From contig QPGO01000069.1 in the NCBI GenBank assembly GCA_008632985.1, positions 310,001 through 374,000 of the forward strand: a stretch of 64,000 nucleotides of DNA. The letters run 5' to 3'. This document shows positions 1 through 64,000 of this stretch, one piece after another. The translations under genes and the position numbers were made by a program. The stretch is from Psammoneis japonica. Lineage: Eukaryota. The notes beneath the pieces were generated by a model that worked only from the letters and a program-made list of their open reading frames with translations, was not told where the DNA came from and did no database searches. How positions within the stretch are numbered: position 1 is the stretch's first letter; each line of letters starts with the position of its first letter.

Positions 1-3000
1 CTGAAGTGTTCCATGCTGACATGCTGATGCTTTTAGGAGACTGGGGAAGAGAGCTGCAAATGTCCCACACAGCATTGACATGTGGTGGACAAAAATGCTC
101 TCCTCCACAACCTGTCTGTCATGCTCTTGACTCATGCATCCAATTGCAGCAGTGCACTGTGGCTCTCTGGCATTGCCAAAGGCACCCCAAGAGAGCAAAA
201 CAATGTTTTTTTTTCATTTTTTCACAGAGCTGCTGGGCTTGTTGAAATGACTTTCCAAAAGATGCCAGCACACAACATCCAGGGTGGATCTTGTTGCGCC
301 TTTCTTGGCAATGTTGTTGCTGGGGTGATTGTGGTTGAACAAAAATGCATCATCTGACTGCCAGTGAAGACCTTGAACTTGCTTGATCCAGTCAGAAACA
401 AAACCAAATGCAGACAAAACTGTGGGATCCTCAACCAAGCACATGATGCCAATGCCAACACCATTGTGAGAATGTTTCCATCTGGTGCATTGACTCAAAT
501 TTTTTTTTTTCATCATCCTTGTGCATGCCCAGCAATTGATGCTTGGTGAAACCAGAGGAGGAAGAAGACTTGGACACAGAAAAGGCATGACAACCATCCA
601 ACTCTGTCAGATCATCAGCAGGTGTTTGGCTGGCTTTCCTGGAAAGAGCCCGGAAATCCAGATGATCAAGGATGGAATGACCAACATTGACAACATGGAA
701 GCAATGATTGCCGTGGTCACTGTTGGTGAATGGACTTCAAAACTCAAGGCATTGCCAGTGTGATGGAAAGTGGCAATGGACTTTTCCATGTTCTTGGAGC
801 AAGCCATCATGCAGCAACAATGCCTCCCGTCAATGCAAGTGGATGCCCAGCCAATGTCAAGATCAGGCAGCACCAAGTGAGTGCAAATGACATGCTGCAC
901 TGCTGCTCTTGACTTGCCTTCCCCACATTGCACAATTCTGGTGCACTCTTCCAGAAGGCATCTTTGGGTTGCTTGCAGACCATGCCAACATTCTCAAGTC
1001 CTCTCCATTTGCTGGGCAATGATTTGGGGACAGAAGCAGAAGTCTTGGTGGAGACAAGAGAAGGAGCTGTTGCAGAAGATTGAGGCAGACTTTTTTGGAC
1101 TGGTGACCACTTGTTGGCCAAGGCCACTCGTGGGGACAGAGATGGCAGCAGAAATGTCAGAAGCACACCACACAGATGAAATGACATGCACAGGAAGCAG
1201 AGCTTGACTTGGAGCCAACAGAACAGTGAAAGGGAGTGACAAAGACATTGTCAGACCAGATGTGGCATTGAAAAATGAGGGTGGCACATTGAACAATTGA
1301 GCTGGAATGGCAGGAGAGGATGCACCCCCCACAGTGCAAGACATCAAGCTCAAATCAATGCAGGAAGAGACACAGTGGGACAAGGCACCAAATGCAAGGT
1401 TCCACCAAGCACACCTTCTCCTGATCTCTGCAAGATCCCAATCCCACAAAGAAGGATCCAGCTGTTGCACCAAAGCAATGTGTGGGTGCACAGTGGGAGC
1501 GGTCATGGACAGAGTTGTTTGAAGGCAACTGAGACAAGCAAACTGCACCGCTGACTGGGCAGGCATGGGATGAACCCTGGCATCATCATCAGAGAGCCAT
1601 TGAACCATCACAGTTAAAAGATGTCTTGTCTTCTCTGTCAAAGAGCTCAAGCCTGCTCTTTTTGCTGAAAAACACTCAAAATCTTTCCTCTGTCTGTCTG
1701 TGGTGTGATGGGTGAGCAAACAACATGGGAAAGTGACAACTCAGTGAGCTGGCCATGAGCAAGGCAAGGCAGATGGTGGCAAGTTCACTTTTGCTCCATT
1801 GTGGCTTCAACAGTTGACTTGCCAAGAAGAGAAAGGTCTGGGAGCACCAAAAGAGAAAATGCAAACTCAATCAAGAATGTGCAGTGCAGGCAAGCAAGGA
1901 AAAAGCTGTGAGGGCCCAGAAGACAACCTCCATTTCCAATGTCAATTTCTCATTGACAATCAGCAATGCCAATTTCTCAAGTGTTGAAAAACTTGAGGAG
2001 GGTCATTCTCTCAGTTTTGATGATGGTGTGAGTCCAGATGTGCTGTTTGCAGTCAAAGTGCCCACCTGCTTGATGGATTGATCCTGTTCTCACAGAAGCA
2101 CAAGCAACCATCAATGCCTGATGCCAACATGGAAAATTGATGCATGACTCCTGGACTTTCTCTCACTTTGGCAACAACAAGAGGGTGACAAGAGTTGTGC
2201 TCCATTTGTTGACATCCCCAGGAGGGAAGGGTTGTCTGAAACTTTGCAGTGCAGCAGAGAGGAAGTTGTTGGCAACACCCAACACAACATGTTTGGAGCT
2301 GAGCAACCTCAGCTCATGACATTCTGGTGTTTGACCGCATGGGACATGGAGCATTGTTCCAGACACAAAAACCCAGCTTTGCTTGATCATGCCCAGCCAG
2401 CATCCTTCACACAGTGGGGGAGCAACCAAGAGCAAGGTGTCTCAGCAATCAGCATTGAGTCAGGTGACAAATGTGGAATCACGTGCTTTGCAGTCAAGGC
2501 CACACATCTCAAAAACAAGGAATGGGCAGCTTTTGACACCCAAGGGCTGGACACAAAAAGTGCACAAATTTCCCCCCAGTGGCGGCACAAGCTTCCCAGG
2601 TGAACAAAGACTGCCACCTGGCAAAGGTGGAGTGAGTGTTGTTTTTGAGGAGGTCAACAATTTGGAGAGAATTGTTCCTTTTCAATGCCATGGGAGCCAA
2701 AGCAGCAGCCAGAGCTGGTGCTGCTCTCACAGTTGATCAAGCATGGAATTGGAAAACCCGCCAATGAGCAATTTGGGAGAACAGTCACAGAAGGAGGTGG
2801 GCAGCTGTCAGGAGTGGAGAAGGATGGAGGGATCACATGACAGAGTGCACAGGGCATTGTTGGCAGATTGGTTGGGGGAAGAGGAGTCTGTGCAGAGGGC
2901 AGAAAGAAACCAAAGAGCATGAGCAGAGAGATGACATGAGATGTTGCAGCTCAATGTTTGGGGGTTGCCCACAGAGGGGGAGAAGAGGAGTGGCACATGC

Positions 3001-5300
3001 TGCCAACAAAGTGATCGCTGGTGAGGTGGTTCCAGGTGGAGTCACTGGAAGGAAGAAGGGAAGTGGGGAAGGTGTGGGCATGTGAAGAACAGCAGACAGA
3101 GTGGCAGGCATTGGAGCAATGGAGAGCACAGGCAGACTGCCAGGGAGGCTTGGGTTGAGAGTGAGTGGCGGGAAATGAAGAGCTCAAAAAAAAGTGGTGG
3201 AAGAAGATCCCCTTTTGTCAAGCAGAGATTGGGGTTCAGTGCAAAAGAGAGTCACATGGAGGTTGGGTGGTGGGAGAGGGTGGGAGGTGCACAGCAGAGG
3301 GGTGTGGAGGTGAAAAAAGAGGGCCCAAGGCACACACACAGACAGAAGTCTCAAGGAGCCTGATGACAATGAACCTCTCCCAGCAGGAGAATCATCTTTG
3401 TGGACTGGCAATGAACATTCGATGTCAAAGGTTGACTGAATGACACATGACAAAAGCATTTGGTGACTTTTGCTGAGGCATGACCTGCAAACATCTGGAC
3501 CAAGTTGAGCTGGGGACACCAAGAGTTGAACTGAGTGCAGGCTCTTCCAACTCTGTTCATTGCACCTGAAGCAACTGGCATGCCTGCATTGTGTGGCTCC
3601 ATGCATTTAGGGGTGGATTTTGTCACGCTCTTGGCCAGCATGCTTCTTTGTCATGTCTGTCTTTGGCAGCAGCATGTGGACAGTGCTGTGGCATTCACTC
3701 CACTGGCAACACATGCGGCATTGCATGACGCTGTCGGGCACCATTGGATGCCAAGGTGTGTCGTTTGCTCAAGGACACTCTCCTGAATGATTGCAAAGCA
3801 ACAGTTGCCCAGTCTTTGAGATGCTCCAGGAGAAAGAACCCAAGGATGCTTTTGGCCAATGGCAAGCATGACACAGACAAACTCATCATGGCGCAGCCTG
3901 GTGACTTGATCCACTTTCATCAATTGGAGATGATTTGGAACGTGCCACTGGTTTGCTCAGTTCCAAACTCAATCAGTCGGAAATGGTCCATTTTCAAGAA
4001 CTGACTCATGATGGACAGGCCAGGTGTCATTTGGATGAAGCCTCTGCTCTGTCAACAGTTGTGATCATTGGCGACAACCAGATGTGCCAAGGACAAGGAC
4101 CTGTTTTGCCAAAAGGCTGCATTGACGAACCAGTTCCACACATTTGTTCTAGATGCCACAGAATGTTTTCCTCAGTTCATTGCCACAGAGAGGAGCTGCT
4201 GTCCTTCCTGGTGCACAAACAAAGCCATTCAGTGATGCCAACACTTGCCTCATTGTTTCCATTCTTCCACAGTTCATTCTCCGCATCCGAAGTGAGCAAG
4301 GGTTTGGTTCATTGACTGCCGCACAGGTGTTGAGCAAATGCAGAGCAGTCATTTTGCATTGAAGAACCAATCATGCCTGGCACACATTTTGTTCCAGAAA
4401 ACATGAGTCGCAGGGCAGGACCCACTGTCACTTGAACCTTGGCACTTCAAAAAGACTGGCTGCCACATCATTTCAAGTTGGGTTGTCAAACCAGGGTGTG
4501 GAGTGCATTTCCATGTTGACAAAAAGAAGATGAAAAGCAACGTCAGCAAACAAATCTCAAATGAAAAGAAAAATGGACATGAAATTGACTTGCATTGGGG
4601 GTTCATTTGAATGCAACGTAGCACAATGAATGCACTCTATGGCATTGTGAAATGCACAACAAATTCATGCAATGAATCTCTTGCCACCCAAAACGGGTGT
4701 CATGTGGGTGTGACAAGGGATTCAAAGAGTTCTTGGAGCAGTCACGCCAGTTGGAATGGGAGGAGCGTCACCATCATAAATGTCTCAAAACATCATTTGG
4801 TCTGGTCTCCATCTGACACGACCGCTGCCAAACAGTTTTCATTTCAAGAGCAGCAGCCATGGGGATGTAAACTGCAAGGGAGCACAGATGGCAGCAATTG
4901 ATCTCTCTGATGGGCTTGTTGTTTTGGGATTAGATGCCTTGGATGAGCATGAAGGAGAAGTTCAGATTTGGTCTTTGAGGGCACGACATCCGATGCGCCA
5001 ATGGCACGGACACGTTCTTCCACAATGACTTTCTTCTTCACTTGTCTCTCAAACACTCCAAAAGCATCAAATTTCCAAGGTCACTGCACCCGTCATTGCA
5101 ATGTCATTGCCAATCTTGATCATTGACACTCTTTCATGAGCTGCATGCATTGAGTTGTGATGGAGCTTTGTCGGTGTCCATGGGGAAAGCTCAGTTTTTG
5201 ATGACTCTGTTTCAGTGCGAGTGAAGTTTGATCTCAGCACGACAACTCAATGAGCAAGAGGGAAGCAGGCTGAATGACACAAATGTCCAAATGTTTGAAT
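1..5300. mobile_element. Heavily degenerated repeat/TE-like domain depleted of both TpA and CpG; family not recognisable
   Basis: Only on the order of ten TA dinucleotides seen by eye in ~5.2 kb, few CG, strong TG/CA excess; many short overlapping Cys/His/Trp/Gln-rich ORFs with no recognisable domain. Confidence 0.55.
3348..3700 (+). repeat. Diverged copy of segment ~9202-9655 (3' end of F-box-like gene plus downstream flank)
   Basis: gtctcaaggagcctgatgacaatgaacct...gttgactgaatgacac matches gtctcaaggagcctgacgaaaatgaaccc...gtcgactgaatgacac; ctttggcagcagcatgtggacagtgct matches ctttggcaacggcgtgtggacagtgct. Confidence 0.85.
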
Positions 5301-5554
5301 GTTGTTGTGCTGCTGGCAAACTCAACCAGTCCCGCTGCCTCAACCGGTCCCGCCGGCTAACTGACGGATGGCTGCTTGCTTGATTTAAATTCCGAGCGCC
5401 GCTGCTCGCCGCCGCATCAACCCCACAGCGCAATGACAACGCAAGATGCTGGCAGTTTGTTCTTCCCAATGAACAAGCAATGCAATCACACTGCCAAAGA
5501 AAACCACAACACTGAGAGTTGCACCATCACACCTCCAAAGAATGACAAAATGCC

Positions 5555-6400
5555 ATGAGTCATTTTAATGGATTGTCAAGCATTTCGTCGTCGACAGAAA
5601 ATGCCGAAAACGCTGCTGCGAGCAGAAGGTCACAAATGGACAATGCACTCGATTGTTTCCTTGATGCTTCCACAGTTGCTTTGCAGATGCAAGACCAGGA
5701 CAATGCATTGAAAAATGTTAAAAACACTTTGCCAAAAGGGAGTAAAGTGACCAAGCGGAAATTGAAGGAAGCCAACGACCAGCTGGCGTTGGTGCAAAAC
5801 AGCATCTCCATTTTGCAAGTGGCAACAAAAGGAGCAACTGTGGCAGCTGCTCAAGCTTCTAGGATTCCCAATGTTGGACATGTCCACAACTGCTTGAACA
5901 GCAAAAGTGTGTGCGCAAGAAGCGAGTGGAAGAGCAACCAAGAAAAAACCAGAAGCCGTTTCCATCGCAAGAATCAAGCGCCGCACCGGCAGGTCAAAAA
6001 CCTGTGCCGGCAAAATCGGAATCCCTCATTGCATTGGAGGACATGTGCAAAGAAAATCAGCAGCTGCAACCAGAGACTCGTGCCCAAAACAAAAGACCTT
6101 GTCTCATGCCGTCATCTCATTTTCATGAAAACTTCCGAATGCCAACAAAAAAGGAAACAGGATTGTGCGGAAAATTTAAATTTGTCGACATGGTCCTGGC
6201 CATTCCCACATCAAAGCGCGCCAAAGTCATTGATTTTGCAATGGAAAACTCGATGATTCCATTGAGCAGCCGACGAGGGGCCAACAGGATCATCCAAAAG
6301 CGATCGAACGGCGCAGCCATGCACTCGGAGTGGGGCGCTTGTCCCGCAACTTCACGGTTTTTGGTTTGCCCCGTGCCATGCGCGGCCTTCACACGTCACG
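5555..6400 (+). pseudogene. Frameshifted, TA-depleted coding relic of unknown (possibly TE) protein
   Basis: Overlapping ORFs 5555-6256 and 5911-6423 read as protein-like (coiled-coil then KFKFVDMVLAIP...EWG), with no Tyr residues. Confidence 0.3.
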
Positions 6401-7550
6401 CGTCTCGCGCCACACCGCAATGACGACACACGACACTCTCATCACTCCAACTTGAAACTGCGCCGCGGCTCATCACTGGCCAGTTGTGCGCTGCCGGTGC
6501 CGGCAGACCCACATGAGGTGCTCCTCGCCGTCGATCATGACATTCTCCTGCCTCAGCATGCGGCAGTGTTGAAGGCAGAAAGAACAAAATTGAAAGGCAG
6601 AAAAGAAAAGGACCGACATGAGCATGCTGACGGCTCATTTGAAAAAGCGCAAGGCAGATGAGGAAGTGAGGGATCAGAAGATTCCTTCATTCAAAGCCTC
6701 AAAGAAACGTCTCAACGACGACACATCTGGAAGCAACGAAACGGAAACAGGTGACATCAGCTTGTTTCTGTCATCGCTTTCTATCGTCGCTGACAACGGC
6801 TGGCTTTCTGCGCAGCATCTTTGTCGCCTGGAATCGACCTCAAAAGCAACACAAGCATGGGTGAAAGACGATCACTGGAAAGTGGTTTGTTGCCTGCGTT
6901 GGCCCAACACGGCTGTTTTTTCCAAAGAGCATGTCCGTGATTTTGGAGGCTACAGAATGTGGTTCCGTCACAGGGCCGCCTCGTTGGTGCGGGAGAACGT
7001 GGATGCTAGACCACTCCCGCCTCCTACGATCGATGTAGAGCAAGTCAGGTTTCTAGTTGACATTTCGGTTTGCGGGAAATCGGTTTGTTCAAAATCTGTT
7101 ATGTTGAGCCCTGAAGGATGGAGACTTTGGTCTGAAAGCGGAGGTTTCGGGTTTCATTTAGAATCTCCTTTTATTGTCGGAGAAGCCCGCTGTTGGCGTG
7201 AGGGTGTGGACGGGCGTCGTTGCAATCATGGATGCAAATTCAATCCTCGTCAATGTGATGCTCGGATCCACCTCATGCGCTGTAAGGAAGAGTGGTCACC
7301 ACCTTTTTGCGTCTGTCAATCGGGAAGGAAGAATTGGATTCGTGCATTCTCAGCTGACAGTGTTGGTGAACCTCAAGACGGCATGTACGATTGGAAGAAC
7401 TCGTCAAAAGAATGGCTTGAATGTGACTCTGATGATCCTGCTTCCCATGACCATCATGGATGTCTGATGATGAGTGACACGCAAATGTCCAGAAGAGTTC
7501 AGCAACGACTGGGAAGCCCAATGCGTTTTTCGATGTGTCTTGCGCTCAAT

Positions 7551-8306
7551 GGAGTGGCGTGCTTTCAAAAATTCGGTGCGCACACCTGATCTGCACAAAA
7601 CACACGTACGTAAAAATGCACTGCAAAATTCGTAGAGATGTTTGTTTGAATTCACTTCACACACAAACATCACGGCAACGACGCCGCGACATCGGCAATG
7701 GACGCACACAACAACGACAGCGGACTGGGGGGTTGTGATGCACCGAGACAACAACTGATGTGATGAGAAATGAGGTGTCAATGTCAAATGACAATGATCG
7801 AGTTGTTTTGGGAGCTGGTTGAGCCATTGGTGACGAAGGGTTTTTGGCACGTACAACTTGGTGCTGAAATCACGCAGAGGTTTTGGCCGCGGTGGGACTG
7901 TTGTTTTTCACTTTTTTTGGGGTGCATTTTGTGTTTTCTCGGTCGATCGCATTGATGAAGCACTGAAGTGAGCACGCGACAACAGATTTTGACGAAAAGT
8001 TGGATTTTCATTCATTGTGGAGGATCAGCACGGGGTTTTTAACACGGTGAAGCACGGGGGGACGATTTTTTCACCAGATTTGCAAGATCCTGCATCCCAT
8101 CCAATTCGCGTGCGCAATGTCAGTGGATTGATGTATTTTTCATACGCAAGAAGCGCAATGACGTCGACATGCCCGACATGACAGACTTCCCGTGCTGTTG
8201 TCGTAATGAAGTGAAATCTTGTTGTGTTCGGTGCGCAGAGTCTAGTGCTGTTTGTCCGCATGCAGACGAGTGCTGCGCACCGCACTTTTGGAAAGTGCGC
8301 CACTCC
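7551..8306. mobile_element. MITE-like non-autonomous DNA transposon, copy 1 (~756 bp)
   Basis: ~33-bp imperfect terminal inverted repeats GGAGTGGCGT(G/A)CTTTC...CGGTGCGCA; flanked by AT on both sides; no credible ORF. Confidence 0.85.
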
Positions 8307-8308
8307 AT

Positions 8309-9063
8309 GGAGTGGCGTACTTTCAAAAATTCGGTGCGCACACCTGACCCACACAAAATGTGCGCACGTAAAAATGTCCTACAAAATTCGTAGAGATGTT
8401 CATTTGAATTCACTTCACACACAAACATCACGGCAACGACGCCGCGACATCGGCAATGGATGCACACAACAACGACAGCGGACTGGGAGGTTATGATGCA
8501 CCGAGACAACAACTGATGTGACAAGAAATGAGACATCAATGTCAAATGACAATGATCGAGTTGTTTTGGGAGCTGGTTGAGCCATTGGTGACGAAGGGTT
8601 TTTGGCACGTACAACTTGGCACTGAAATCACGTAGAGGTTTTGGCCGCGGTGGGACTGTTGTTTTTCACTTTTTTTGGGGTGCTTTTGTGTTTTCTCGGT
8701 CGATCGCATTGATGAAGCACTGGAGTGAGCACGCGACAACAGATTTTGACGAAAAGTTGGATTTTCATTCATTGTGGAGGATTGGCACGGGGTTTTTAAC
8801 ACGGTGAAGCACGGGGGGACGATTTTTTCACCAGATTTGCAAGATCCTGTATCCCATCCAATTCGCATGCGTAACATTAGTGGATTGATGTATTTTTTAT
8901 ATGCAAGAAGCGCAATAACGTCGATGTACCCGACATGATAGACTTCCCGTGCTGTTGTCATAATGAAGTGAAATCTTGTTGTGTTCGGTGCGTAGAGTCT
9001 AGCACTGTTTGTCCGCATGTAGACGAGTGCTGCGCACCGCACTTTTGGAAAGTACGCCACTCC
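8309..9063. mobile_element. MITE-like element, copy 2, head-to-tail with copy 1
   Basis: Colinear with 7551-8306; termini GGAGTGGCGTACTTTC / GAAAGTACGCCACTCC are perfect inverted repeats; AT at 8307-8308 and 9064-9065. Confidence 0.85.
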
Positions 9064-9945
9064 ATGTGATTGAGCCGGGGGACAAGATTGCAGTTGCTGG
9101 TTTTGAAATCAACCTCTTTTGTGTCAATGACGGCAACTGGTTGGATTTTGACTCTGAGGCTGCAGAGGAGAAGGGCGTCTCTGTGTTGCATGTCATGGAG
9201 AGTCTCAAGGAGCCTGACGAAAATGAACCCCCCCCAGCCGGGGAATCATCGTTGTGGACGGACGAAGAGCATTCGATGTCGAAGGTCGACTGAATGACAC
9301 ACATGGCAGAAGTCTCTGGTGACTTTTGCTGAAGCAATTCGAGTGGTTTCGGCAAAACTTGCGCGTTGCCAACTTTGTGTGACAGCGTTGGAACGAAATC
9401 ACATTCAAAGGCGAACCGCATCTCGGCGGCCCAGTGTGCACCTACAGTGTGACCTTGAAATCTCTGGAGCGACTTGAACTAGGGATGCCGAGAGCTAAAC
9501 TAAATGGGGACTTTTCTGTTCATTTCACACGAAGCAACTGGTGCATGCCCACATTGCACGGCTCTGTGCATTTAGCGGCGGCTCTCGCCACGCTCTTGCA
9601 GCACGCTTCTTAGTCATGTCTTTGGCAACGGCGTGTGGACAGTGCTACAGTACTCTTCCTCTCAAAAGCTTTCGTGGGCTGCTACTCTCGCTCCGTTTAG
9701 TCCCTCGCTATTAGCCCAACGGCCTCGAAGTTTCTTGTCAGTAGTGACTGTCAAATCTTTGCCGTGCTGGTGACTACTAGAGTAGACCGGAGAACTGGAA
9801 CTAGCGTGGCGGCAAAAGAGATTTGGTCGTGACTCCCATCTTGGGGAAAATCAGATAATTTTACTTCTACTACACAGAGCTGAACTAATGTTGCTTCTTC
9901 TATTCTTACAACTCGAAGCAAGTTGTACAACTCCTCCTCTACGCC

Positions 9946-11127
9946 TTACATGCCTCCCGCCATCATCTGCTGCAGCATGGCAGGGTTCATTCCTCCTCCC
10001 ATGCCACCCATACCACTCATCATGCCTTCAATCATGTTGAGCATACTCGGAGGCGGCTGAATGTTGAAGTATGACTTTCCAATCTTGGTCGTGTACGTTT
10101 CGACAATCTGCGGCTTGTACATGACGTGGAGTTCCTTCTTGAAGGACCGAAGGAGCCACGAATAGAGAGGACCCGTCTTGGTATCCTTTTCACACACCCT
10201 CAAGAGCATGCAACCAAAGACAACGTGAGACGGGGACTTGCCATCGTCCTTTTTCATGTACGACTTGGTAAGATCGTCCATGGGTCGGTCTTCGACCTTT
10301 TCAATAAAGCCCCTTAGCAAAATGTTGGCGTCACGCAAATTCTCCACGGCGCAAAACAACAAGAGACTGCGAGTCAAGAGTGCATCACGATCCGCCGGGG
10401 GACACGTGTGTCCCATTTCCAATTCCTGATCCGTGGGCTTGGGAAGCGACTCGAGCCACGACAAGATCTGATCTGGCTTTTCGGCCAACACCATGTTTGT
10501 CACGGCATCACACTGCAGTGCATCACACGACTGTCCGTCCTCCTCATCGTCTACCATGTCATCGGCACCCTCTTCTTCTTCTTGTGCAAGCAGGGACAAC
10601 TTCCAGCATTGGTGTCCCATGAGTTCCAACAAGCGTTGATCTCCGAGTCGGATCTTTCCCAAATCGGCAGACCATTGAATGGCTCTTCGGAGAAAATCCC
10701 GTTCAAGTCGTTCCAATCGATTCCGTTCCGCCTTGGACGCAATGTCCGATTCATCCAGAGCTGTTTGTTGCGCCTGATGCAATTCGACAAGACGTCCAAT
10801 CCATTCGTCCGTCGCTTCTGTATGAGTCTCTCGCAACGCCTCCACCAAACACGTCAAGAGCTGAGATGCGACGGACACGCGATGATTCTTGAGAATGGTC
10901 AAACTGCCCTGGTAGGCCAAGTCGGTAGCACCGGCGTAATCTCCAGCCTTGACGCGTTTGCGAACCTGAGACTGAGCGAGCTGCAACGCTTCGTATGCAG
11001 TGGCTTCGTCCTTGAGATTCTCGCCCTCGAGCAATTCCTTTAGACGAAGGGATACCGCATCCTGACTGTTTTCGTTCTTTTTGCGAGCTTCCAACTGCTT
11101 ACGACGACGAGCTGCGGCGGCACTCAT
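9946..11127 (-). CDS. GET4: Golgi-to-ER traffic protein 4 (Get4/TRC35) homolog
   Basis: YEALQL..., FLRRAIQWS...GDQRLLELMG, ..TKIGKSYFNIQPP.. with Met/Gly-rich tail; start chosen at MSAAAARRRK. Confidence 0.75.
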   Translation of the reverse strand: MSAAAARRRKQLEARKKNENSQDAVSLRLKELLEGENLKDEATAYEALQLAQSQVRKRVKAGDYAGATDLAYQGSLTILKNHRVSVASQLLTCLVEALRETHTEATDEWIGRLVELHQAQQTALDESDIASKAERNRLERLERDFLRRAIQWSADLGKIRLGDQRLLELMGHQCWKLSLLAQEEEEGADDMVDDEEDGQSCDALQCDAVTNMVLAEKPDQILSWLESLPKPTDQELEMGHTCPPADRDALLTRSLLLFCAVENLRDANILLRGFIEKVEDRPMDDLTKSYMKKDDGKSPSHVVFGCMLLRVCEKDTKTGPLYSWLLRSFKKELHVMYKPQIVETYTTKIGKSYFNIQPPPSMLNMIEGMMSGMGGMGGGMNPAMLQQMMAGGM

Positions 11128-11536
11128 TACTATTATATTTACAGCGAGGTTGCTGGATACAAGCAACAACAAACACAACAGCAACAACACGGAGATGGGA
11201 GAGTGTGATGAAAAAAAGATGTGCGGTGCGGTGTGCGCCGACGCGACACGTGGGAAGGATCGACCTAGTATGTGCTCACGTAGAATTGTACGCAGTCATT
11301 CGATTATCCGAAAGACAGACACGCTTCACCGGCACGCATGCAAAGGATAAGCGCACCCTAAACACAGATAAGAAGGCGTTCATGCAAAGAATGTGCTTAT
11401 CAGTCATAGGCGGAAAACGAAACTTCGACAGTCATCTCGCTCGCTCGTTGGCTTCACAAATCACAAATTGTTGTTGTTGTTGCTCTTGTGTATTGTTGCT
11501 GTATTGTGTTTCATGTTGTCGTTGTTCTTGTCCAAG

Positions 11537-13059
11537 ATGAAGACACCCAGTGTGTTCAAAAAGAGCTTGGGAGCTTTGGCCTTTTTGATTTTGTTTCTTC
11601 CGCTGCACAAGTTTTTTTCATGGTTGCCTTTCATCAAACGACTTCTGCTGCCGCCGACCAACAACAAACAGCCCTGTCGTCCATGCTGGAGCAAAGCAAA
11701 ACAACAACAACTATACACGACGTTACAACAAGAAAGATGGAACCTTTAATGGATTGTATCTCATGTATAGAGAGCCACTCCCCACGTCTCATGCACACTG
11801 TGTGGGAGAAAACTATCGAGAACATTCTTGGATTGGGCGGTCTTGTGACTTTCGATACTTGTGTTTCGATACGAGCAACACGAGTTTGTTTTGTTTCGAT
11901 CCGAAATTGAAGCCAAGCTCACAAAGCCTTGGGAGCGACCAATCATAACTTTACGGATGTTCCACACAATATCGAATGATTCTCACGTTTCGATAGGAGG
12001 CATCAATTTGAAATGGAACAAGAGGGATATGACCGACTCAAGTGGTTTCCCAAGATTGTGGATGTTGAAAGCATGACGGAACAAACGGGCTTTTATGAAT
12101 TGCCATCGGATGTGGTTTGGATTCCGATTCATTCGCTTGCCGGATACAATCCCGGTCATTTAGTTTGGGACGACCTTTTGCCGACCTATACGTTGCTGTC
12201 CATGTTTATGCACTTGGACGACAAGAAGCGTCCACTCTTGATGCGAATGGTTCTAAGAGACCCCCTCTGGGCTTCATGTGACTTTGAACCAAAAAAGAAG
12301 CTCTGTCAAACCATGATTCGAAAGTTTATTCCAATGATGGGTATGGATCCGACTTCGTTTAGTACCTTTCATGACTTTGCATTCAACACCACCAACGGTG
12401 AACCACCCAAATCAAAGTATGTTTGTGCTCGACACGGAGCAGCCGGTATTGGAATGTTGACTGATCACGGAACCAAGTTGCATGGATGGAGTCATGAGGA
12501 TTATGAAACGACACACAATCACGGACGAGCTGCAAATTTTTATCAATTTCGAAACTTTTGTTTACAGAATTTGGGCATACCCGTCAAGCCAGCCAATGCC
12601 AAACCGCCATTTAAGGTTACCTTTTCCGTGAGTTCATCGGCACGTGCCGTTGGAATATACGGTAATTTGGATCATCAAATTGACGCTGTCGAAAAGGCCT
12701 TTCGTGGTGAGGAGGTGATTGTACAAAAGTACAAAATGAGTGACCTTTCGTTAAAAGAGCAAGTACAGATTGCAGCCGACTCGAACATATTCATCACCAT
12801 GGCGGGAGGGGGTGCGGTCACTGCGTTTTTCCTTCCCAAGGGGTCGTCTTTGATTTTGTATTATGATGAGATGGGTGGGGTTCACAGAGGTAGACCAAAC
12901 AAGCGTCCCGCCAGATTGGACTGGGACATTTTCAACAATGCGGCACACATTTCAGCCCATTGGCTCCCGCTTCGAACATTCAAGAAAGACGAGGATGTTG
13001 AGGCCTTGGTTCAGCTGATACGATATGAACTCGACAGCATAAAGGCACTGTCCCAATGA
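11537..13059 (+). CDS. Putative glycosyltransferase (GT61/DUF563-like), type II membrane; frameshifts in 5' part
   Basis: N-terminal TM, HCVGENY...RSCDFRYLCFD, NPGHLVWDD, SLKEQVQIAADSNIFITMAGGGAVTAFFLPKGS. Confidence 0.7.
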
Positions 13060-61135: not shown

Positions 61136-61384
61136 NNNNNNNNNNNNNNNNNNNNNNNNNNNNNNNNNNNNNNNNNNNNNNNNNNNNNNNNNNNNNNNNN
61201 NNNNNNNNNNNNNNNNNNNNNNNNNNNNNNNNNNNNNNNNNNNNNNNNNNNNNNNNNNNNNNNNNNNNNNNNNNNNNNNNNNNNNNNNNNNNNNNNNNNN
61301 NNNNNNNNNNNNNNNNNNNNNNNNNNNNNNNNNNNNNNNNNNNNNNNNNNNNNNNNNNNNNNNNNNNNNNNNNNNNNNNNNNNN
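61136..61384. other. Assembly gap (N run)
   Basis: Run of N. Confidence 1.
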
Positions 61385-61979
61385 GTGGTGCTGGCGTCGA
61401 GTTCATTCCGTCAAGGCTGATTTGTCGCAAGGCACCGTGCACAAATTGTGAGAATGGAGCATCAGCATCACGGATTTTTGTGATGCATTTATGTATCTTT
61501 GGTGTTGTTTCTCACTTCTTGTCATTTATTCGATGTTTGTGCTGCAAGGTTCTGTGGTGATTGGCTCTGTTCCGCTGACTTGCTCTTCGGAACTTGTCGT
61601 TGAACAATCGAACTGCGTTTCAAGTGGAACTGATGATCAAGAGTTGGCGGCGGTGATGTCTCAACGTCCCTTTGGCCGATTTTCGCGGTTCTTGTTTCAT
61701 TCTCAACGGCAATTGTACAAGGAATCCGACAGGCTTGGCTTTGTTGTGCAAAATTTCATTCCATGGAGATGGATTTGTTGAATGTCGATCGGCACCCAAG
61801 GCTGCTTCAATTGGAAGGGACGCTCCCGCAATGTTTTGGATTGAAAAAGGAATGCCGCAATGAAGCCCTGGACATGTTCACATGCAACATGAACATTGAA
61901 TGTGGCATGTGCACACAAACAAACATGAACTGACACGGAATGCAATCGCCGTCTGACCCCTTCATTCTTTCTGCTGCCG

Positions 61980-63938
61980 CTAAACCTGCAGCAATGGACT
62001 CAGACTGTTGTTGCGCTTGTCGTGTTTCAATGCATTGACAATCTGAGTCACTGGTTTTGATGCACCACAAACCTGACACACACGATCACAAGCCACCTGG
62101 GCACTCAATCCAGCTCGGACAAGCCCAGCCACCACGTCCCATGGAACCTTCCTTCTGCGGCACTTGTGCTTGACTCGACCGCGCTCTTCTCTGGTGAAGT
62201 CTTGTGCTGCTTTCCTTCCACCAATTCCATTCTCATGCTTTTGCCACAGAATGTGAATGGTCCTTGGATTTGGGCCAAGGGTGCTCTCATGCGGGACGTG
62301 GTTTGGATTGTTGTTGTTTGCACCTTGCTGAGGCGGGACGTTTCCTGCAGCTTGTTGGTTGCCTTCCTGGTTTCGCGCAACTCCAAATGCAGGCTGGGAA
62401 GCAAGGCGTCGCACATTGCATTCTACATTTGCAAGTCGACGCTCCAGCTGTGCATGATGATCATCAGAGCAGGCTTTGAGCTCCTCCATGACGCGACGCA
62501 ATGATCTCACCTCGGAGTGCATCGCAAGCAATGGATTTCGATCGACAAGCCCACGGCCGGCTGCGACGCCCCCATTCTGAGCGCCATTCCCCCCATCATC
62601 AACATCCACCACTTCATTGAAATGCACCTCAGCATCTTCACCAGTCACCACCATCAATGCTTTTTTAATTGGATTCTCGCCGACCGGCAGTTGATGAACT
62701 CCATTGCATGCTTGGAGAATGCGTTCTCTTAGATGTTGCGGAAGGTGCCAGCTTTCTTCTGAGAAAGCAAACCACAGCAGTGCTTTCCCAAGCACCAAAG
62801 CAATCTCAGCACCAAATTTGTTGTTTGTTGCTGGCGCCACATGCTCCAATAAAAAATCATTTGAAACTGGCCTCCAACACAGAGTGCTGAGGCAACCTTG
62901 GCATCCGGCCACGGCAACTCTACGTCATCATACAAATCCGACATGCGCTTGGACATTTTCCAACGGCCACGACAGTCCTTCTCATCTTTTTGGCACCCAT
63001 TGTTGCGGGCACGCGTTGAGCCATACTTTCTGTCACTGTGTGAGCCAACCAGTCCTTTGGTGCTTCCTGTTGCAGCAACAAATTCTGGATGAATGTACAC
63101 TTCGTTTGTGAGTGTCTTGGTGACTGCATCCTTCACCTTTTCTCCTCCTTCTGGCACACGAAGGTCATTGGTTAATCCAAAAATGCAAGGTGCACGTTCT
63201 GCGGCACCTCCTACACTGTGGAACACTTCCAGCCAAATTGCCAAGCCAAGCAAAGAACAAAACTGTGGGTCCAGCATTGCCCCAAAGAGAATTTGGTTTG
63301 GGGCATCTCTTCTTCCAGACAGTTCTTTGACCAATTTGGCCTTGCCCGCAGGGTGAAGTCATTGGCTGGATGGGGGGTGAAATTGTCATTAAGAAACTGC
63401 GTGCAATCATCGATTCGACCAATCATGTGAACCTGAAACCGGGACAAGCTTGGCATGAGATGCTTCCGCAGCATGGATTGGTCTGGTTTTCCTCGAGCAT
63501 TTTGATTTGAGCCCGGTGCTCCTCATCTTTCAATGGTCGTCTCTTTTTTGACGGTGCGCCTCTGTTCCGAGTTTCCTCTTTCTTGACCTTTTTGATGAGT
63601 TTGTTTGCATCGGTTGATCATGTCGGGTTGCCTTGGTTCGATTGAACATTCCACGGCATCAACCGGTTTGGCACGCAGCTGGAAATCGCCTTCTTCCAGC
63701 ATTCCAACAAACTTGACCTTGCTTGCTTGGGCAAGTCTTCTTTGCCTGGTTCGGGCGTTCCACACGCCTTTAGATTCATCCACCGCTTGACATCATCGGG
63801 GGTCATTTGAAGCAGCCTCTGGTTGGTGAACTCTTGCTCACATTGACAAGTCACCCCATCAAGAAATGACATGAGTGCCATCAAGGTTGGCTTGCAATCA
63901 TTTTTAGATGGCATGGTCTCCATTGCATTGTTGCACAA
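61980..63938 (-). mobile_element. Degenerate Crypton-like (CryptonS-type) tyrosine-recombinase transposon with C-terminal GCR1_C-like domain
   Basis: GSHSDRKYGSTRAR..GC.KDEKDCRGRWK...YDDVELPWPDAKVA (HxxR, W, catalytic Y); N-terminal WKKAISS...GNPT; C-terminal LWQKHENGIGGRKAAQDFTREERG..RRKVPWD; several frameshifts. Confidence 0.75.
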
Positions 63939-64000
63939 ATCGATCAGAAACGCGATGTTCCATGCAACAAATCGGTTGTTTCAATGCGGAAAAATTTCCC

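Follow-up and report, generated by a model that had tools for sequence, protein, structure and literature searches.

Loss of TpA and of tyrosine codons in a Crypton-type transposon relic of the diatom Psammoneis japonica

What removes most of the conserved tyrosines from a transposon protein and leaves most of its other strongly conserved residues in place? The question is raised by the end of a stretch of 64,000 nucleotides (the window) from the diatom Psammoneis japonica (GCA_008632985.1, contig QPGO01000069.1, positions 310,001-374,000 of the forward strand). On the minus strand at 61980-63980, three frames encode pieces of one protein. This protein belongs to a Crypton-type tyrosine-recombinase element. 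A first-pass annotation of the sequence had proposed that tyrosine in the relic was systematically replaced by cysteine or histidine, as expected if the dinucleotide TpA was changed to TpG or CpA. Here we show that tyrosine was lost far in excess of other conserved residues, and that the change ran from TA to TG or CA. The explanation that we favor, with a probability of about 85%, is a local process directed at TpA that changed A:T to G:C in the DNA of this Crypton copy, a process probably of the same kind as the hypermutation described in Bigelowiella natans (Mettrop et al., bioRxiv 10.64898/2026.01.13.699255).

Tyrosine loss in the relic

The relic can be read against its family. From 1224 candidates, a word-based protein search with the longest piece picked out a single relative, P0001. 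P0001 has 659 amino acids and carries the Pfam domain GCR1_C. In a tblastn search it aligns to the window in four collinear segments of 33-47% identity and finds no second copy in the 64 kb. A HMMER search with P0001 returned 4034 proteins at E ≤ 1e-3, and the best 150 of these were used. Among them, 79 homologs of 590-730 amino acids gave a family profile of 651 positions. The relic covers 633 of these 651 positions (hmmsearch; 61983-63923, minus strand) and is thus the remnant of a full-length recombinase. Its reading frame is shifted three times and, within the 633 aligned codons, interrupted once by an in-frame TGA.

Tyrosine is almost absent from these codons. There are 3 Tyr (TAY), 20 Cys (TGY), and 21 His (CAY) codons, while the medians of 151 family proteins (Y 3.24%, C 1.77%, H 2.59%) predict ~20 Tyr, 11 Cys, and 16 His. 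The small number of tyrosines that the first-pass annotation had noticed is real.

To locate the losses, we defined Tyr columns as those profile columns in which Tyr is the commonest residue in the 79 homologs at a given threshold. The relic then reads as follows:

Tyr consensus of at least 30%: 17 columns; relic 1 Y, 8 C, 3 H, 2 F, 2 W, 1 S; non-Tyr residues kept 228/360; Fisher p = 2e-6
Tyr consensus of at least 50%: 9 columns; relic 1 Y, 7 C, 1 H; non-Tyr residues kept 159/198; Fisher p = 3e-5
Tyr consensus of at least 70%: 6 columns; relic 1 Y, 5 C; non-Tyr residues kept 100/108; Fisher p = 5e-5

Eleven of the 16 tyrosines lost from the 30% columns are now Cys or His. The ratio of Cys to His (8:3) does not depart from 1:1 (p = 0.23). 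Intact homologs do not share these residues: in the same 17 columns the 79 homologs hold 803 Y, 188 F, 67 H, and 8 C in 1273 cells, and none of them ever has more than one Cys there. Other conserved residues fared very differently. In columns with a consensus of at least 50%, Lys is kept at 13 of 14 and Asn at 5 of 5. The loss of tyrosine lies far above that of any other conserved residue.

A few further changes are of the type that a loss of TA produces. Valine became alanine, encoded by GCA, at position 106, and isoleucine became threonine, encoded by ACA, at position 367. Phenylalanine is replaced by Cys at position 83, where 17 homologs have Tyr, and by His at position 136, where 10 homologs have Tyr. 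There is no ATA codon among the 633 aligned codons.

Ten Cys or His slots had been singled out beforehand as former tyrosines. Tyr is the commonest family residue at nine of them, and the homolog motifs with Tyr that the first-pass annotation had named agree with the family consensus built here. At eight slots (states 10, 26, 54, 75, 566, 591, 619, and 622) Tyr occurs in 39-87% of homologs. The support is weak for the Cys of EKDC (state 308), with Tyr in 15 of 78 homologs. At the His of VKHK (state 589), 21 of 74 homologs have His and 12 have Tyr, and this residue of the relic may thus be the original one. The tyrosine of the LYDD motif, which had been taken for the catalytic survivor, is indeed in place at state 322.

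One other member of the family is poor in tyrosine. P0033 (684 amino acids) has the lowest Tyr content of the 151 family proteins (1.02%) and a high His content (4.24%). At the 17 Tyr columns it carries five His and one Cys. P0033 may be a partly hit copy with a bias toward one strand.

Erasure of TpA and the direction of change

The DNA of the element is as skewed as its protein. The ratio of observed to expected counts (o/e) is 0.11 for TA, 1.68 for CA, 1.47 for TG, and 0.64 for CG. In bins of 1 kb, TA o/e is 0.10-0.12 from 61001 to the end of the window, as against 0.38-0.95 in the genic middle. The switch from genic to erased sequence sits exactly at a run of 249 N (61136-61384); TA occurs 59 times in the 1636 bases before this run and 18 times in the 2616 bases that follow. 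As the assembly broke at the repeat edge, the true boundary of the TA-poor sequence is not visible in the window. Both strands were hit equally: the plus strand of the relic domain has 247 CA and 261 TG (p = 0.56). CpG is still fairly common at this end of the window, as had been stated from the sequence alone (CG o/e 0.62-0.68 versus 0.05-0.18 at 1-4000).

A second and stronger TA-poor domain lies at the start of the window (1-12000). At 1-4000, TA o/e is 0.00-0.02 and CG o/e is 0.05-0.18. From there the ratios rise stepwise, with CG at ~1 by 6000 and TA at 0.3-0.5 by 8000-12000. The plus strand of 1-7000 shows a slight excess of CA (785 versus 704 TG, p = 0.04). Taking the two TA-poor domains of the window together, 18 of the 36 surviving TAs have the context Y-TA-R, compared to 19% (365/1936) of the genic ones (chi-square p = 1e-5).

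Composition alone does not tell in which direction the letters changed. Other copies of the element do. Contigs from one sample of the same organism were placed on the window at a likeness of at least 80%; run X1 has 35% and run X2 has 7% of the window's sampled 31-letter words, and no contig of run X3 was placed on the window. The contigs are of three kinds: the window's own version, diverged sister copies, and internally deleted forms. The window's own letters are found in 49 of the 155 placed X1 contigs, which are at least 99% alike. The TA-bearing contigs are more distant. A record of 1845 bases in X2 spans 61980-63771 with 122 differences in 1792 bases, and these contigs also show a 31-base insert and a 3-base deletion relative to the window. 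With so many other differences, they are other copies and not the same locus.

Three insertions relative to the window set the sister copies apart: one A after 63476, one T after 63309, and 31 bases at 62868/62869. The 31 letters are present in contigs of both X1 (depth 131) and X2 (depth 106). All three coincide with the zones where the relic is frameshifted, and thus the sister copies are in frame there.

Forty of the 327 differences are listed base by base. In 16 of them the window has CA or TG and the read has TA; in five the window has TG or CA and the read has CG. The rest are nine other transitions and ten transversions. The reverse case, TA in the window and TG or CA in the read, does not occur among these 40 of the 327. 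Of the listed C>T and G>A differences, 16 of 21 lie in CA or TG (39% expected, p = 7e-4), where they restore TA. At the window's Cys and His codons at 62069, 62078, 62162, and 62237 the sister reads give TAT or TAC. Tyr is the family consensus at the affected columns and, at these four codons, also the state of sister copies, which lack the three frameshifts. The direction is therefore from TA to TG or CA. The predicted replacement of TAY by TGY or CAY is borne out.

At 62258-62259, TG in the window corresponds to CA in a sister copy. This looks as if one ancestral TA had been hit on opposite strands in two copies.

The same erasure is found outside this assembly. We retrieved 80 environmental loci encoding relatives with a 6-sequence alignment, and calculated TA o/e over the open reading frame (ORF) match. 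In 78 of the 80 loci the ratio is 0.44-0.79 (median of all 80, 0.595), and of the 1116 cells in their Tyr columns, 717 are Tyr, 64 are His, and 4 are Cys. The relic, at 0.11, is outside this range. The two remaining loci, L079 and L077, come from a metagenome assembly unrelated to the window. L079 has a TA o/e of 0.01, with 6 TA in 3764 bases. Its 18 Tyr columns contain no Tyr, 5 Cys, and 3 His, and its codons include no TAY, 29 TGY, and 25 CAY in a single frame with one TGA. L077 has a TA o/e of 0.12, and its 13 Tyr columns contain no Tyr, 1 Cys, and 6 His. Both loci carry TGC, a Cys codon, at the place of the presumed nucleophile (position 322). At three shared Tyr columns (82, 229, and 346) the two loci show opposite outcomes of Cys and His.

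L077 also shows an edge. Its flank has a normal TA content (o/e 0.65 over the first 400 bases) and becomes TA-poor from near base 520, ~220 bases ahead of the ORF match, which begins at 744. The TA-erased stretch is L077:520-2294.

We tried the base that precedes the codon as the factor that decides between Cys and His; if T-A-Y were the preferred target, a pyrimidine there should lead to Cys instead of His. Pooled over the window relic, L079, and L077, a pyrimidine goes with 6 Cys and 3 His, and a purine with 10 Cys and 10 His. The sign is the expected one and the difference is not significant, and we do not count it as evidence.

Two other loci differ in CpG instead of TA. L076:1501-3070 and L036:2-1640 have a normal TA content (0.50 and 0.60) and almost no CpG (0.10 and 0.16); L076 has seven stops. 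Thus, CpG decay and TA erasure occur separately in the family.

The Crypton-type element and its parts

The relic is a Crypton-type tyrosine-recombinase element. Cryptons were reportedly the subject of a 2003 paper by Goodwin et al., as cited in Kojima and Jurka 2011. The readable parts of the element are:

63924..64000, minus strand: 5' upstream part; continues past the window end, with the 5' terminus outside the window
63471..63923, minus strand: ORF piece A, profile 1-150, N-terminal domain, frame 2, hmmsearch score 165
63618..63620, minus strand: TGA, the only in-frame stop, at profile position 102 (family consensus Arg)
63277..63498, minus strand: ORF piece B, profile 149-215, frame 1, with the presumed catalytic Arg169 and Lys199
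62861..63328, minus strand: ORF piece C, profile 199-345, frame 0, presumed catalytic core
62930..62932, minus strand: surviving TAT of the presumed nucleophile Tyr (LYDD, position 322), Tyr in 77 of 78 homologs
62868..62869, minus strand: third frameshift, a 31-base deletion, with ~10 codons lost around profile position 346
61983..62873, minus strand: ORF piece D, profile 349-649, frame 2, hmmsearch score 263
61980..61982, minus strand: original stop TAG, a surviving TA (plus-strand context C-TA-A)
61385..61979, minus strand: non-coding 3' part of the element, TA-poor, with 4 TA in 595 bases

Piece A has Cys codons at the former Tyr positions 10, 26, 54, and 75. Its TGA fits a change from CGA, that is, a CpG transition. 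The frame of piece B is bounded by 1-base deletions, near 63476 where it is entered and near 63309 where it is left. Piece C keeps His286, Arg289, Trp312, and Tyr322. Profile positions 344-353, at the site of the 31-base deletion, are absent from the alignment of the relic. Piece D comprises a linker, a coiled coil, and a GCR1_C-like C-terminal domain, and holds the former Tyr codons 408, 566, 591, 619, and 622. The outer end of the 3' part is hidden by the run of N.

Sequence searches did not identify the fold. Pfam finds no family in the five relic pieces, only a match to APC1_C at chance level (E = 0.034). A profile of 37 homologs finds nothing below E = 0.33 among the PDB sequences, and tblastn of the relic against phage records gives no match. 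Hence, the fold had to come from structure prediction. The AlphaFold2 model of the intact homolog P0001 (37 aligned sequences) has a pLDDT of 86. With this model, Foldseek places Cre at the top of the PDB (5u91_E, E = 1.7e-4, TM by target 0.62; 2hof_B, 0.66); Xer, Flp, and lambda integrase come next. The family is predicted to have the fold of Cre, Xer, Flp, and lambda integrase, and the relic aligns to the profile of the same family over positions 1-649.

Six residues (R169, K199, H286, R289, W312, and Y322 in profile numbering) vary little or not at all in the family, and the relic retains every one of them. They presumably form the usual recombinase active site. The spacing of the last four probably equals that of H289, R292, W315, and Y324 in Cre.

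The C-terminus bears on the group to which the element belongs. When five homologs were searched for GCR1_C, P0001 (27.0 bits) and P0008 (26.7 bits) exceeded the cut-off of 23 and three stayed below. The match covers residues 559-625 of P0001, within its C-terminal 70 residues. CryptonF elements combine a tyrosine recombinase (YR) with GCR1_C, and CryptonS elements, from oomycetes and a diatom, combine a YR with a conserved C-terminus that is said not to be GCR1_C (Kojima and Jurka 2011, PMC3212892). The matches would fit CryptonF or a divergent GCR1_C-like domain. As far as the two groups are described in PMC3212892, our family resembles both in its single long ORF, its R-K-H-R-W-Y core, and its conserved C-terminal DNA-binding region. 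It also shares their occurrence in stramenopiles, including a diatom, and their non-autonomous deleted derivatives. Unlike CryptonS as described there, it matches GCR1_C weakly. Cryptons encode a YR protein only, lack reverse transcriptase, LTRs, and terminal inverted repeats, and end in short direct repeats of 4-6 bp; in CryptonS these measure 5-6 bp, and most CryptonS elements have TATGG termini (PMC3212892). In our case both element ends lie outside readable DNA, and nothing besides the YR protein is recognizable in 61385-64000.

The host has multiple copies of the element, as X1 and X2 contigs carry diverged sister copies and internally deleted forms. Contig depth is 580-3000 at 61473-61852 and 800-2160 at 63849-64000, and ~150-400 over the ORF; the raised depth (580-3000) is reported for both element ends, 61473-61852 and 63585-64000. 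Deletion joints connect 61852 to 63613 (with 81 other letters in between), 61852 to 63766, and 61764 to 63804. Depth and joints indicate that non-autonomous members of this Crypton family, with internal deletions, are abundant. The 3' part at 61385-61979 is common to the abundant deleted copies in the read set.

The process behind the loss of TpA

We propose the following sequence of events. A Crypton copy, with a tyrosine recombinase and a GCR1_C-like DNA-binding domain, would have inserted at this locus. A local process would then have converted the A:T of TpA to G:C, giving TpG or CpA. A conserved Tyr would become Cys (TGY) through a change on the coding strand, or His (CAY) through a change on the opposite one. 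Since Tyr has no codons but TAY, a process acting on TpA rewrites the conserved tyrosines. It creates no TAA or TAG stops, and therefore the frame stays largely open. A slower decay of CpG to TpG or CpA, two 1-base deletions, and one 31-base deletion would be later additions. The agent would be enzymatic; the simplest candidate is a deaminase of adenine in DNA, with a preference for A after T and aimed at silenced or repeated DNA.

A process with these properties was reported for B. natans (Mettrop et al., 10.64898/2026.01.13.699255). In a mutation accumulation experiment, two integrated viral regions took up 231 of the 302 point mutations of the nucleus. All but one of these (230/231) were A>G or T>C, all at TpA, at rates roughly a thousandfold above background. 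The process was on in only 11 of 15 lines, which the authors read as regulation. Reverse transcriptase and DDE domains are over-represented among the TpA-poor coding sequences of B. natans. As the mechanism, the authors suggest that an ADAT2-like enzyme deaminates adenine in DNA. Diatoms, stramenopiles, and tyrosine have 0 occurrences each in the text of the preprint. Our searches of the full-text literature found no report of TpA hypermutation in diatoms; the B. natans preprint was the only related report.

The diatom relic shares with B. natans, as presented in that preprint, the changes A>G and T>C at TpA that give TpG and CpA, the foreign or mobile nature of the target, and the long-term footprint of low TpA and high CpA plus TpG. 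It differs in host and target. B. natans is a chlorarachniophyte, a rhizarian, and the targets there are inserts from giant viruses and virophages; here the host is a diatom, a stramenopile, and the target is a Crypton DNA transposon. Furthermore, erasure is nearer to complete here (TA o/e 0.11, and 0.00-0.02 at the start of the window, versus 0.45 in a B. natans viral region). The B. natans process was measured as a mutation rate, while the diatom process is known from its footprint in the sequence alone. By analogy, the two are probably processes of the same kind.

Other known systems fit less well. Like the repeat-induced point mutation (RIP) known from Neurospora and other fungi, the process disables repeats in place through dinucleotide-specific transitions and leaves sharp, skewed domains. 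However, the C:G to T:A changes of RIP, mostly at CpA, increase TpA and introduce stops, whereas here TpA is removed and no TAA or TAG arises. We rejected RIP because TpA is depleted, CpA and TpG are enriched, and Tyr codons are lost instead of gained. APOBEC3 and ADAR also inactivate mobile or viral sequence through clusters of context-dependent transitions, and ADAR favors U before the edited A. Yet APOBEC acts on C, and ADAR acts on double-stranded RNA and occurs in animals only, while our target is a DNA transposon that was hit on both strands. TpG and CpA also arise when 5-methylcytosine is deaminated at CpG, a decay that is active in the repeats of the window too. It cannot, however, remove TpA or turn TAY into TGY or CAY, and it is far less advanced in the relic.

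Several other explanations have to be weighed against a TpA-directed process. The loss of TA could be real and still be a by-product of silenced-repeat chromatin, for example through a modified base at TpA that is misread or deaminates, or through error-prone repair or replication. The deaminase is a putative agent, and CpG decay, normally a by-product of methylation, goes on alongside it (CG o/e 0.64 in the relic and 0.05-0.18 at 1-4000). The excess of Y-TA-R among the survivors is possible from any sequence-selective chemistry. However, a by-product agrees poorly with a process that is on in some lines of B. natans and off in others (10.64898/2026.01.13.699255), and TA loss in the relic is near complete while CpG is largely kept. 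The two processes are thus uncoupled, and we consider a by-product unlikely, if worth keeping in mind. It is much harder to believe that the assembly or the base calling miscalled true TA, perhaps with a modified base, as TG or CA, the frameshifts being sequencing errors too. The TA-poor domain does begin exactly at a scaffold gap, and even the best run has only about a third of the sampled words and contigs that read TA at many sites. These contigs, however, are other copies, as their insert, deletion, and many differences show; besides the 49 X1 contigs that match the window, depths of ~40-75 keep the window letter at variant sites. The same erasure in two contigs of an unrelated assembly weakens an artefact further, and Illumina-based mutation accumulation shows that the process is real in B. 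natans (10.64898/2026.01.13.699255).

Ordinary neutral decay, with a general drift from A:T to G:C or a genome-wide avoidance of TpA, is hardly credible. TpA is low across the window, including the genic bins, and in the family, with its median of 0.595. But the counts contradict such a decay. In columns with a consensus of at least 70%, nearly all non-Tyr residues are kept (100/108) and only one Tyr of six, and thus the copy is little diverged except at TA. Lys, Asn, and Ile or Phe codons show no matching shift from A to G (K 13/14 and N 5/5 kept), and the TA o/e of the relic is outside the range of 78 of the 80 relatives. Least credible of all is A-to-I editing of a transcript with subsequent copying into DNA. 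In its favor, ADAR and the A-to-I editing of fungi both have a 5' U preference (10.64898/2026.01.13.699255). Cryptons, however, move as DNA through a tyrosine recombinase and have no reverse transcriptase (Kojima and Jurka 2011, PMC3212892). In addition, CA and TG are equally frequent on the strand, and the non-coding 3' part is TA-poor too. Since Cryptons have no RNA intermediate and both strands are hit equally, the change was made on DNA.

Some observations also weigh against a local TpA-directed process acting on this copy. Its confinement to the element is seen on one side only, across an assembly gap, and the other side lies past the end of the window. The assembly was probably made from this read set, which is represented by Logan contigs and not by raw reads and whose platform is not on record. 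The base-level classes cover the 40 listed of 327 differences. In the full X1 tally the forward class (window to read) comprises 71 C>T and 56 G>A, and the reverse class makes up 87 of 214 transitions (45 T>C and 42 A>G); CpG decay in the window accounts for some of these 87 and not for all. The three surviving Tyr codons are all R-TA-Y, which should be the preferred target, and not the Y-TA-R that is enriched among survivors. Finally, the outcome of Cys or His shows no clear dependence on the base before the codon.

With these points taken into account, a local TpA-directed process remains our preferred explanation. The relic is a clear and well-controlled instance of a rare mutational signature, and not a new kind of system. 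What looks new, judged by analogy with B. natans, is that the change from TpA to TpG or CpA occurs in another lineage, far from the first, and that it affects a DNA transposon. The relic is a codon-by-codon readout that fixes the direction of a mutation process described so far in one 2026 preprint only. A diatom DNA transposon and two metagenome contigs show that the process is not peculiar to one species or to viral inserts.

There are also consequences for annotation. Transposon genes that were erased for TA keep long open frames and can be mis-annotated as host genes. Their Tyr-poor, Cys- and His-rich products escape family models, as in the relic, which has no Pfam match while its homologs match GCR1_C.

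More tentatively, and with less than even confidence, we suggest that diatoms and the hosts of L079 and L077 may run a dedicated defense enzyme that edits A after T in silenced mobile DNA. Such an enzyme would be shared with Bigelowiella, and be either old in SAR or horizontally spread. Diatoms are genetically tractable. If the suggestion is true, proteins would be disabled without stops. Tyrosine-recombinase transposons would be hit hardest: the codon of their nucleophile is itself a TAY target, and thus the process would be especially lethal to them, as the Cys at this position in L079 and L077 illustrates.

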